Assembly: GCF_056712565.1 (NCBI RefSeq)
Contig: NZ_CM160072.1
Reading direction: 5' to 3' (one strand)
Length of the DNA: 64,000 bases
In this document: positions 11,071-15,797 of the stretch, in pieces
Numbering within the stretch: the first letter of the stretch is position 1
How the letters are laid out: each line of letters begins with the position of its first letter
The notes under the pieces: model-generated
Told to the model about the DNA's origin: nothing
Seen by the model: the letters and a program-made list of their open reading frames with translations, nothing else
Databases searched by the model: none
Position numbers and translations under genes: made by a program

Positions 11071-12726
11071 TTAGTCAGATTTAATCTGCGCGCGTGGTGG
11101 ATATTTTTTCAGGATCTCCATATACGCGTGCATTTCGGTCTGTAGCGGTACACCCATCGGAATATGGCGCACGCCGATAGAGTCGCTTTCCTGCGGATCG
11201 GTGTACAGGTTAAACACCGACGATCCCGCCGTTTGCATTACTGTGCCGGTGAATCCACCCTGATATCCGCTCTGGGTATAAGCGTAAGGTTGCTGAATCA
11301 GGACGTGATACTTGAACTCATCCATACGCACAGCAGAAAGTTTACCGTTGAGGAAGTAGTGCTCGGCCTTACGGTTAGACTGACCATTTGTTCCCAGGAA
11401 GAAAGATGTCTGGTCCACACCATCGATAAAGGTGGTTTTCGGTACTAAATTCGCTACTTTCGCCCCAGGATGCCCCGCCAGATCCAGCGCCGTAGGGAAG
11501 AGATCCGCCAGATCGACAATGCCGTCAGATTTACGCGGTTGGATCATGCCTTTCCAGTAAACGAAGGTTGGCACACGAACGCCGCCTTCCCATGTAGAAC
11601 CTTTCGCACCGCGGAACGGCGTGCGACCGTGCGGCGGAACTTCGGCTTCCGGACCGTTATCAGAGGTGAACACAATCAGCGTGTTATCAAGCTGACCGTT
11701 TTTCTCCAGTGCTTTATACAGATTGGCGAAGATATCGTTCATCTCCACCATGCAGTCGCCGTAAGAGGTGCGCGCCGGAGAGCTACCCGCATATTTGGCG
11801 TTCGGGTAGTTATCGAAGTGACAGCCGCGAGTGCCGTAATAGAGGAAGAAAGGCTTATCACTCTTCGCCATCTTGTCGAGGAACTTAACGCCATATTCCA
11901 TCCAGCGTTGATCCAGGTCTTCCATATATTTCGGCGTAATGTCGGCAATGGCTTCCTGTTCACCGCCGCGCACGGCATGAACGTCATCTTTGCTGAACGG
12001 CAGTTTTTGGATGTATTCAGAACGAGCCGGGCTCAGGGCGACTTCCGGGTTGACATGAACATCACGCCATTCGGTATACATATCGGACACCGAGTTAAAG
12101 CCGCGGAAATCATCAAAGCCAACGTTCTGCGGCTGCGACTCTTTGTTTTCCCCCATATGCCATTTCCCGATAGCCTGGGTGACGTAGCCCTGATCGTGCA
12201 GCAACTGCGGCAGCGTGGTTAACCCTTGCAGACCGCCCGGTTGCCCGTACATTGGCGGCATCAGAATGCCGTGGTGGATGGAGTATTGTCCGGTGAGAAT
12301 CGTGGCGCGGGTTGGGGAAGAACTCGGTTGAGAATACGCCGAAGTTAAAATCAGCCCCTGGCTGGCAACGGCGTCGATATCTGGTGTAGGGTTACCCACC
12401 GCCACGCCGCCGCCGTTAAAGCCAACGTCCATCCAGCCCACATCATCCAGCAAGAAAACAACCACGTTCGGTTTCTTACCGGTTTTTTTCTCAAGTTCCG
12501 CCAGTTTCTGCTGGGTTTCTTTGTCTTGTGCAGGATGCTGCATCACCGGCATCATGTTGTCGGCAATAGTGGTCGCCGGTTTAACCAGATACTGGTTTGG
12601 GTGATCGTATCCGGCAAAGCCTTTGCGTGCGGTGGCGGTTGACGGGGTATCTGCTGCGCTGGCTATGAGAGGAAGAGCTGCGGCGACAGCAACAACAAGA
12701 AGTTTGGGTGAAAACGAAAATTCCAT
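11071..12726 (-). CDS. aslA: arylsulfatase-family protein
   Basis: 551 aa with signal peptide; sulfatase-family sequence; paired with aslB. Confidence 0.85.
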
Positions 12727-13150
12727 GCAAAATGCTCCGGTTTCATGTCGTCAAAATGATGACGTAATTAAGCATTGATAATTGAGATCCCTCTCCCTGA
12801 CAGGATGATTGCATAAATAATAGTGATAAAAATAAATTATTTATTTATCCAGAAAATGAATTGAAAAATCAGGAGAGCATTTTCAATCCTACCTCTGGCG
12901 CAGGTGATATGTAAGGCGGTGATGTTATATCGCGTTGATTATTGATGCTGTTTTTAGTTTTAACGGCAATTAATATATATGTTATTAATTGAATGACTTT
13001 TATTATTCATTATATATATGTGTAGAATTGTGCGCAGGAGAAATATTCACTCAGGAAGTTATTACTCAGGAAGCAAAGAGGATTACAGAATTATCTCATA
13101 ACAAGTGTTAAGGGATGTTATTTCCCGGTTCTCTGTGGCATAATAAACGA

Positions 13151-13357
13151 GTAGATGCTCATTCCATCTCTTATGTTCGCCTTAGTGCCTCATAAACTCC
13201 GGAATGACGCAGAGCCGTTTACGGTGCTTATCGTCCACTGACAGATGTCGCTTATGCCTCATCAGACACCATGGACACAACGTTGAGTGAAGCACCCACT
13301 TGTTGTCATACAGACCTGTTTTAACGCCTGCTCCGTAATAAGAGCAGGCGTTTTTTT
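13151..13357 (+). ncRNA. glmZ: small RNA GlmZ
   Basis: Sequence recognised as GlmZ (begins GTAGATGCTCATTCC), ending in intrinsic terminator aacgcctgctc-cgtaataa-gagcaggcgtttttttt; aslA-hemY intergenic location; TGgCATAAT extended -10 just upstream. Confidence 0.85.
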
Positions 13358-13404: not shown

Positions 13405-14601
13405 CTACTGTGGCGGGTTGTTCTGCAACGTTAACATCAAACCGTCGCGACGCATCGCTGCGGCTTCTTCCGGCTTGTGCAGTCTGTCCAGCGCGTCGGC
13501 AAGCCATGCGTAATCGTAGGCGTCCGGACGTTGTTTCAGCGCTGCGCGGAAGGCGAGCGATGCTTCCTGCCATTCTCCGTGTTTCATCAGCGACTGACCC
13601 AGTGTGCTCCACAACAGCGGGCGATCGCCCACGTTTTTGATCTGTTGGCGCAGCACTTTTTCCAGCTGTTCCGGGTTATTGGTTTTCAGACGCGGGATCG
13701 GCAGCAGCAGGCGATCGTCATACTGGCGTTTCAGGCCATCGATGATAATTTGCTGGGCAGTATCATGATCGTCACACTCAATAAGATGTTCCGCCATTGC
13801 CACCTGCAAGGCCACCTGATGACGCGTTTTCCGGCTTTGGTTTTTCCACCAGTTACGCAAACCTTCACTACCGTTATCGGCACGCGCCTGATCCATCAGG
13901 CCAATCCATGCCTGTTGTTCCAGCATTGCACGATGTTCTTCATCACCAACATGGGCTTTCGCCATTGATGGGATGATATCCAGCAGCGAACTCCATGCAC
14001 CAGTGCGGATATACGCCTGTTCCGCCAGACGTAATACTTCCGGATGGCGTGGCGTAACTTCCAGCAGCTTATCCACGCCGTGACGTGCTGCATGGTTTTC
14101 ATTACGGGCCAGTTGCAGACGTACACGGGTGATTTCTACCGGAATGGTGTCATTGCCGGCCAGCTCCGCTGCGCGTTCCAGATGTTGGTTGGCGCGTGCT
14201 TCATCACCACGTTGTTGCGCGGCTTCGGCTGCCAGTAGATAGTTCACCACCGGTTGTTCAGCGTGATCGGCATTTTTCGCCATCAGCTTTTCAACTTGCT
14301 GATAATCGCCTTCCGCCAGTTTCAGCAGCGCCTGTTCGGTCTGCTTACGTGCACGGCGACGCTTACGTCCGACAAACCACCCACGGGTGTGCGCGCCTGT
14401 GCGGAAGATTCGCCGCAGTAGCCACTCAATGGCAAACAGCACTACCATCGCCAGAATCAAAATAATCGCGAGGCCCGTGACGCTGGTTTCAATATTGTAG
14501 TTGTCGGTCTGGATCAGCACGTAACCCTGATGGCCGGCAATCATCGGGCCAACCACGATCCCCGCAATCAGCAACACAAAGAGCAATAACACTTTTAGCA
14601 T
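13405..14601 (-). CDS. hemY: HemY (TPR-containing heme biosynthesis-associated protein)
   Basis: 398 aa; N-terminal TM segments; hemCDXY operon synteny. Confidence 0.85.
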   Translation of the reverse strand: MLKVLLLFVLLIAGIVVGPMIAGHQGYVLIQTDNYNIETSVTGLAIILILAMVVLFAIEWLLRRIFRTGAHTRGWFVGRKRRRARKQTEQALLKLAEGDYQQVEKLMAKNADHAEQPVVNYLLAAEAAQQRGDEARANQHLERAAELAGNDTIPVEITRVRLQLARNENHAARHGVDKLLEVTPRHPEVLRLAEQAYIRTGAWSSLLDIIPSMAKAHVGDEEHRAMLEQQAWIGLMDQARADNGSEGLRNWWKNQSRKTRHQVALQVAMAEHLIECDDHDTAQQIIIDGLKRQYDDRLLLPIPRLKTNNPEQLEKVLRQQIKNVGDRPLLWSTLGQSLMKHGEWQEASLAFRAALKQRPDAYDYAWLADALDRLHKPEEAAAMRRDGLMLTLQNNPPQ

Positions 14602-14603
14602 GG

Positions 14604-15797
14604 TTATTCTCCTTGCGGCGCGGCTGCCGGAGCATCAGCTTGCGGTGCAGGTGCAGGTGCAGGTGCAGGTTTAGCTTCCGTTGTCCCTGCTGCCGGTTGT
14701 GCCAGCAGGTTACGCACGCGGGTCTGCATCAATTTTTCCAGCATCGCCTGGCTTTGCAGGGTTTCCGGAAGATCCATCGAGATATTTTGCTGGCTTAACT
14801 GGTCCACCTCGTCGAGGAACGCTTTGGTGGTGGCATCATCAGTATCGTAGTAAGCACGTACCCAGGTGGAGACGTTCTCCAGCGCCTGGCGATAAGTCTC
14901 TTCCTGGTGACGCGGTACAGCTTGTGCTGCGACCAGCAGGCGAGAGCGAATATTTTCGCGCAGATAGATATCCTGATTTGGCGCTAACAGCGGTACGGCG
15001 GTGTCATCACGACGGCGAATCGTAATGAAGTTGTCCATAAAGTTCTGCCAGCTTTTTTGCAGATTGATACGCCATTCGCTGATGGAACTGGAAAGCTCTT
15101 CACCGTCGGAATCCATCGGCGAACCATCGCTGTCATTATCGGCCAGACGCAGATTATCTACCTGATTTGAAAGCTGATTAAGCTTAAGGATGATACCGTC
15201 ATAATCCACCTGCGATACCGCAGAAAGGCTGGCGATATCATCGGTAATTGCCCGGCGAACGGTAATCAGACTCGGGTCATTCATATCCGCCAGGCTGGCG
15301 TCTGCACTTTTCAGCAACGCTGCAGCGGTCGTGACGTCCTGATCGCTCCACAGCTTCCGTCCGGCGAGTTTCACCAGAAAATCGGCCTGGGCCAGCAGCC
15401 AGGTTTTAGCATCGCTGCCGGAAATGGTGGCGACCTTTTGTTGGACTTCATCCAGCTGTTTTGCCAGCGTTTCTTGCTGACGATTCGCCTGCTCAAGCTG
15501 TACAGCTTGTTGCTTGATAATGCCTTCCAGCTCGGCTTTTTGGCTCTCCTGGGCTTTTTGCAGTGCCGTAAGTTGGTTAGCCAGGGCATCGCTGGTGGCA
15601 GTCTGATTGACGGCCTGTTGTTTACCCCAGCCATACAAACCGACGCCCGCCGCCAGAGCAATAGCGATAGCCACCGCGCTGAGAATCAATGCGGTATTGT
15701 TCTTACTCTTTTTTTCTGTTGCGACAGGTTGTGACGTGGTGTCCACGGCCTCCCTGGTCTCTTCAACCACGGCGGAGGTTTTTTCTTGTTCCGTCAT
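14604..15797 (-). CDS. hemX: HemX
   Basis: 397 aa with coiled-coil and C-terminal Pro-Ala repeat; synteny. Confidence 0.8.
14641..14670. repeat. hexanucleotide tandem repeat (GCAGGT x4 plus one variant) inside hemX
   Basis: tgcggt gcaggt gcaggt gcaggt gcaggt; encodes PAPAPAPA on the minus strand. Confidence 0.7.

Follow-up and report, generated by a model that had tools for sequence, protein, structure and literature searches.

CVN014, a repeat locus with a 6 bp unit typed in the generic E. coli MLVA assays GECM-7 and GECM-10, was reportedly first described by Lindstedt et al. in 2007 (J Microbiol Methods) as part of a generic E. coli MLVA scheme. It has served for the routine typing of E. 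coli since 2007, and that it is polymorphic is well established. One study named CVN014 the “most variable locus” of its assay (PMC3877011), and in non-O157 STEC it was the most polymorphic locus, with 9 alleles in the range 4–15 and a Nei diversity of 0.83 (PMC3519732). Alleles 2, 3, 4, 5, 6, 7, 8, 10 and 11 have been recorded inside ST131 alone (PMC3407997), and Swedish ESBL isolates show a distribution of 2–12 (PMC5217547). The typing papers examined here, all subsequent to the 2007 description, make no mention of CVN014 lying within hemX or of its coding for Pro-Ala. A full-text literature search combining hemX with VNTR or “tandem repeat” returned unrelated mentions only.

Three other kinds of repeat share some properties with the hemX array described here. 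Pro-Ala-rich extended linkers are found in the OmpA hinge, in TonB and in the lipoyl-domain linkers of E2 proteins. These linkers resemble the hemX array in their alternating Pro-Ala sequence and their predicted non-globular, extended form, with no homology implied. They differ in that they join two modules that are folded or functional, whereas in HemX the array is followed by 12 non-conserved residues and by no obvious module to tether. The contingency loci of Haemophilus, Neisseria and Campylobacter are presumed, as is the hemX array, to change by slipped-strand mispairing in a simple-sequence repeat. However, their units are not multiples of 3, or they are promoter repeats, and they switch genes on or off; the 6-nt unit in hemX keeps every allele in frame and alters protein length only. 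STTR5 of Salmonella Typhimurium is a 6-bp in-gene repeat. Like the hemX array, it is a hexanucleotide in a coding region, is variable among close isolates and serves as an epidemiological marker, but its gene and unit are different ones. Ranges for STTR5 have been published (PMC5183578).

The host protein, HemX, carries the legacy name “uroporphyrinogen-III C-methyltransferase” (Sasarman 1988, cited in PMC2704936), and a review calls it poorly characterised (PMC2704936). A search of HemX against Pfam found no methyltransferase domain. More recently, HemX has been described as a distant homologue of Mic60 that is without the mitofilin domain (bioRxiv 10.1101/2022.06.14.496148), and deletion of hemX makes cells less sensitive to gentamicin (PMC12282077). 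The protein encoded here matches the HemX family (PF04375), and its hemC-hemD-hemX-hemY operon is as described for gammaproteobacteria (bioRxiv 10.1101/2022.06.14.496148). The repeat, by contrast, stands outside the domain that defines the family and is missing from most of the members examined.

The array was found in a 64-kb stretch of E. coli DNA, referred to below as the window; the features of the locus are collected in Table 1. Four GCAGGT units stand head to tail without error at 14647–14670 on the plus strand (GCAGGTGCAGGTGCAGGTGCAGGT, 0 mismatches; the surrounding sequence near 14640 is ttgcggtgcaggtgcaggtgcaggtgcaggttt). With up to 2 mismatches allowed, GCAGGTGCAGGTGCAGGTGCAGGT has no other site in the window, and 0 of 100 dinucleotide-preserving shuffles of the window gave a match to the four-unit tract. 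Tandem Repeats Finder reports a tract of 27 nt at 14644–14670 (period 6, 4.5 copies, 100% matches), which is the sole period-6 array across the 64 kb. In the minus-strand reading frame, the sequence is AAA (CCT GCA)x4 CCG CAA, or K-(PA)4-P-Q; the four-unit array is (Pro-Ala)4 at residues 377–384 of the 397 of HemX, and the whole repeat spans 377–385. It lies C-terminal to the Pfam HemX domain (130–363) and ends 12 residues short of the C-terminus. The original prediction had placed four perfect GCAGGT units and one variant at 14641–14670, encoding a Pro-Ala repeat near the HemX C-terminus. The four units and their position in the protein are borne out, but the variant TGCGGT (14641–14646) encodes Pro-Gln, not Pro-Ala. 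Of the 15 E. coli alleles read, 14 keep the CCG CAA that follows the array, as do the other Escherichia loci; CCA CAA takes its place in one locus (L011) and in the Citrobacter loci. A plus-strand ORF of 61 aa at 14613–14798, containing the string CRCRCRCR, was rejected as a gene and is a by-product of reading the repeat antisense within hemX.

Table 1. Features of the hemX-hemY junction and its repeat array (positions in the window)
Feature	Position	Strand	Evidence
hemX CDS, 397 aa + stop	14604..15797	-	ORF, Pfam PF04375
hemY CDS, 398 aa, HemY_N + TPR repeats, translationally coupled to hemX	13405..14601	-	ORF, Pfam
hemY Shine-Dalgarno AAGGAG within the last hemX codons CAA GGA GAA (QGE)	14609..14614	-	sequence; QGE and [AG]GGAG conserved, 77 species
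In-frame array (CCT GCA)x4, Pro-Ala x4	14646..14669	-	sequence, TRF, translation
Degenerate unit CCG CAA (Pro-Gln), 3' of the array on the coding strand	14640..14645	-	sequence
CVN014-F primer site, TCCCCGCAATCAGCAAMACAAAGA, inside hemY 5' end	14559..14582	+	exact match; PMC8143711 Table 1
CVN014-R primer site, GCAGCRGGGACAACGGAAGC	14674..14693	-	exact match to complement; PMC8143711 Table 1

The gene is hemX. The protein matches Pfam PF04375 with E = 3.8e-108 and 361 bits (gathering cut-off 25.9) over residues 130–363, covering positions 2–235 of the 236 of the profile, and the RefSeq annotation is hemX at the corresponding position in every matching E. coli genome. The surrounding genes are those of the E. 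coli hemC-hemD-hemX-hemY operon, and cyaA lies upstream in divergent orientation. The hemX stop codon TAA (14604–14606) is followed by two bases and then by the hemY ATG (14599–14601). From the end of the array, it is 31 nt to the hemY Shine-Dalgarno sequence and 39 nt to the hemX stop. On the far side of hemY, a gap of about 680 bp that extends to a sulfatase-like gene (11071..12726, minus strand) is occupied by GlmZ (SraJ), a known E. coli sRNA unrelated to the repeat (Rfam RF00083, full-length model, 13151–13357, plus strand, 218 bits, E = 2.8e-57). A short imperfect tandem duplication of 15 nt (13044–13073, 1.9 copies, score 53) lies in the intergenic sequence just upstream of glmZ.

HemX is laid out as an N-terminal transmembrane segment at about residues 36–57, a long helix, the HemX domain and an Ala/Pro-rich tail (367–397). 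A Lys-rich segment precedes its single N-terminal hydrophobic stretch, and the positive-inside rule applied to a protein with one N-terminal transmembrane segment indicates that the bulk of HemX, including the tail, should be periplasmic. An AlphaFold2 model built from a 42-sequence alignment of close HemX relatives shows residues 367–397 as coil with a pLDDT of 27–33; the mean pLDDT of the whole model is 55 and its pTM 0.39, and the transmembrane helix is unmodelled. This model hints that the tail may be disordered.

The hemX array is CVN014, a VNTR locus already in use for E. coli typing, with the same 6 bp unit and no difference in sequence. A statement linking the two is absent from the literature found, and the identification was made because the published primers match. 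Both primers, TCCCCGCAATCAGCAAMACAAAGA and GCAGCRGGGACAACGGAAGC, and the sizing formula (product-111)/6 come from PMC8143711. The amplicon of the window, 14559–14693, is 135 bp, so that (135-111)/6 gives allele 4; the same formula gives 2 for K-12 and 13 for O157:H7 Z1830. In all 14 of the 14 sequences that retain both primer sites, the formula returns integers from 1 to 14 that equal the units counted. Since CVN014 is already known, the gene and protein context given here annotates an established marker and is not a new feature. One strain among those read, E. coli N96 (L004, NZ_CM169999.1), has three units and a divergent flank in which a 9-nt deletion turns AAGTTEAK into AAEAK, for a HemX of 392 aa. 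The change in its flank deletes the CVN014 reverse-primer site and would yield a null allele in PCR.

The proposal that HemX length varies among strains in 2-residue steps was followed up in complete E. coli genomes, where queries of 201 nt and 211 nt centred on the array found the locus in 5425 of 5426. Alleles were counted in two rank-spread listings of matches that gave 39 + 59 = 98 usable rows for the 5425 genomes; identity bands were unusable as copy numbers, with long alleles split in two pieces and flanking SNPs shifting the bands. In all 98 rows, the matched length was that of the query plus or minus a multiple of 6 nt, giving 14 alleles of 1–14 units. The prediction is thus supported, and copy number is far from invariant. 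Because rows were taken systematically along the BLAST ranking rather than at random, and the collection is biased toward clinical and laboratory strains, the following frequencies are rough: 1 row with one unit, 16 with two, 5 with three, 4 with four, 14 with five, 16 with six, 10 with seven, 10 with eight, 4 with nine, 5 with ten, 4 with eleven, 1 with twelve, 7 with thirteen and 1 with fourteen, for a Nei diversity of about 0.89. The distribution resembles that of the Swedish ESBL isolates (PMC5217547). It is uneven, with peaks at 2, 5–8 and 13 units, which may reflect only clonal structure and sampling bias of the collection. Several K-12 laboratory strains are among the 16 of 98 rows with two units, the K-12-type allele, and given that frequency, short arrays may be quite stable.

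Arrays were also read at the level of sequence, in 14 fetched records and the window. The 15 sequences make up the full ladder from 1 to 14 units, and each array is pure CCTGCA, is in frame and leads to the same stop. Annotated HemX proteins accordingly measure 391 aa with one unit, 393 aa with two (K-12), 415 aa with 13 (O157:H7 Z1830) and 417 aa with 14. The 14 fetched records hold 14 different HemX accessions, and in 12 of them HemY is one identical protein, WP_000921791.1. When the alleles are sorted by flanking SNP haplotype, CATCAGC is joined to arrays of 4, 5, 6, 7 and 10 units, TATCAGC to arrays of 2, 3, 8, 11 and 13, and TATCACC to arrays of 1, 9, 12 and 14. With four or five array lengths on each flanking haplotype, and alleles from 2 to 11 inside ST131, the array appears to change faster than its flanks.

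The window has the CATCAGC haplotype, as do ST131 strain 4993 and UPEC strain BH100, and it is 100% identical to BH100 over 201 nt; HemX of K-12 and of O157:H7 carries QADTP, unlike the flanking haplotype of the window. The shared flanking haplotype suggests that the window lineage is related to these extraintestinal pathogenic strains. Of roughly 5,500 matches across the E. coli collection, one falls on a record classed as a plasmid; this record could be a piece of chromosome, a replicon labelled wrongly or a plasmid that carries hemXY.

A wider view came from a scan of species-representative genomes, which gave 80 Enterobacteriaceae hemX loci, 77 of them with a full ORF. In these 77 species, the tail that follows the conserved RVRNL[LM]AQ is 17–52 aa long (median 24) and consists of 36% Ala and 25% Pro, and no column of it is conserved save the terminal QGE. 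The protein ends in QGE in 74 of the 77, and one extra Gln follows QGE in the other 3. At the DNA level, CA[AG] GG[AG] GA[AG] also serves as the hemY ribosome-binding site in all 77 species; the codons CAA GGA GAA form the hemY Shine-Dalgarno sequence 2–4 nt before the hemY start (14599–14615 on the minus strand of the window; loci L007–L086 in other genomes). The conservation of QGE is probably due to this overlapping ribosome-binding site rather than to HemX function. Comparison of these sequences suggests that the tail is dispensable in sequence, being conserved in composition and otherwise free to vary.

Pure CCTGCA arrays occur at the matching hemX position in several of these genomes: 6 units in Escherichia albertii and 7 in each of two other Escherichia representatives, 9, 14 and 13 in Citrobacter sp. 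NCU1, Awk 4 and R56 (L024, L025 and L026), and 3 in Raoultella ornithinolytica. The remaining Citrobacter, the Salmonella loci and Klebsiella pneumoniae have 0–1 units, with one in Citrobacter sedlakii and none in hemX of Salmonella enterica subsp. arizonae or K. pneumoniae. The two loci of Salmonella arizonae and diarizonae have no long period-6 tract in hemX, 8 nt being the most found. These data indicate that the microsatellite is not restricted to E. coli and that it grew from an Ala-Pro-rich proto-sequence in some lineages. Expansion in the Citrobacter clade is either parallel to that in Escherichia or shared with it. Its recurrence at the same position could mean that the site is a mutational hotspot or that a long tail is favoured by selection.

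The array has the properties of a microsatellite: identical units stand head to tail, alleles differ by whole units and the flanks are otherwise collinear. It is very probably an in-frame hexanucleotide microsatellite, (CCTGCA)n, at the 3' end of hemX, driven by slippage and largely neutral, and it is identical to CVN014. Replication slippage is the most likely cause of its changes in length, with unequal recombination among the identical units as a possible second route. Within the unit lies the palindrome TGCA, and in long arrays imperfect hairpins can form, with 4-bp stems and 2x2 mismatches between them. Folded as DNA, the two strands of a 13-unit array give -14.9 and -18.1 kcal/mol (z = -5.5 and -2.5), and those of a 4-unit array only -3.2 and -3.8 kcal/mol. 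Structures of this kind could stabilise slipped intermediates, above all when the allele is long. With each step, the low-complexity C-terminal tail, which is rich in Ala and Pro and lies outside the HemX domain, would gain or lose one Pro-Ala dipeptide, and the hemY ribosome-binding site downstream would stay untouched. The variation in length is most likely neutral or nearly so.

Three other explanations are less likely. Coding-region simple-sequence repeats are the classic basis of phase variation, and a repeat within hemX could be read as an on/off contingency locus; repeats are also error-prone in assemblies, so that the differences in length could be artefacts of sequencing or assembly. 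With a unit of 6 nt, every allele stays in frame, and the result is a length polymorphism rather than on/off phase variation; each of the 98 sampled lengths differs by a multiple of 6, and the 15 alleles read all keep the frame up to the same stop. Artefact is countered by the variation in length seen both in complete-level assemblies and by independent capillary fragment analysis in many laboratories. The chance that the array is a phase-variable switch or an artefact is therefore negligible. A second proposal looks to hemY, with array length altering mRNA structure or ribosome traffic near the hemX-hemY junction and so modulating coupling and the dosage of HemY. In its favour, 31 nt separate the array from the Shine-Dalgarno sequence downstream and 39 nt separate it from the hemX stop, imperfect hairpins are possible in long arrays, and E. 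coli prefers other codons than CCT and GCA for Pro and Ala. However, the hairpins are weak and would be unwound by ribosomes translating hemX, no two of the alleles read differ at the ribosome-binding site, the stop or the start, and alternating Pro-Ala is not known as a strong stalling motif. Such an effect on hemY is very unlikely.

A different type of proposal places the effect in the protein. If the Pro-Ala array were a stiff spacer, its length would set the periplasmic reach or spacing of the HemX C-terminus, and slippage would supply functionally distinct HemX variants for selection to tune. This would fit with the use of Pro-Ala repeats as extended linkers in other envelope proteins, with the Ala/Pro-rich tail retained in 77 of 77 species even though its sequence is not kept, and with the long CCTGCA arrays in two genera. 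The change in gentamicin sensitivity on deletion of hemX further indicates that HemX has a measurable phenotype (PMC12282077). Past the array, however, only QGE is conserved, which the hemY ribosome-binding site explains, leaving no obvious element to position. Moreover, alleles 1 to 14 are all present in successful lineages, and the ST131 clone carries alleles 2–11 with no phenotype reported (PMC3407997). Adaptive length tuning is improbable. A bolder form of the idea, to which we give a slightly smaller chance still, is a heritable and reversible tuning knob, in which the length of a stiff periplasmic Pro-Ala rod on HemX, as a Mic60-like protein of the inner membrane, modulates a haem- or respiration-linked envelope phenotype. 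If this were true, aminoglycoside uptake would be an example of such a phenotype, and the expansions in Escherichia and Citrobacter would reflect selection and not only a hotspot.

What is added here is that the marker is tied to the hemX frame, as a Pro-Ala dipeptide repeat from residue 377, outside the HemX domain. MLVA alleles at this locus are readable in silico from genomes, the window being allele 4, and the differences in HemX length among database entries (391–417 aa) come almost entirely from the CVN014 array. If the function of HemX is worked out, the natural alleles of 1–14 Pro-Ala units would be a ready-made linker-length series.
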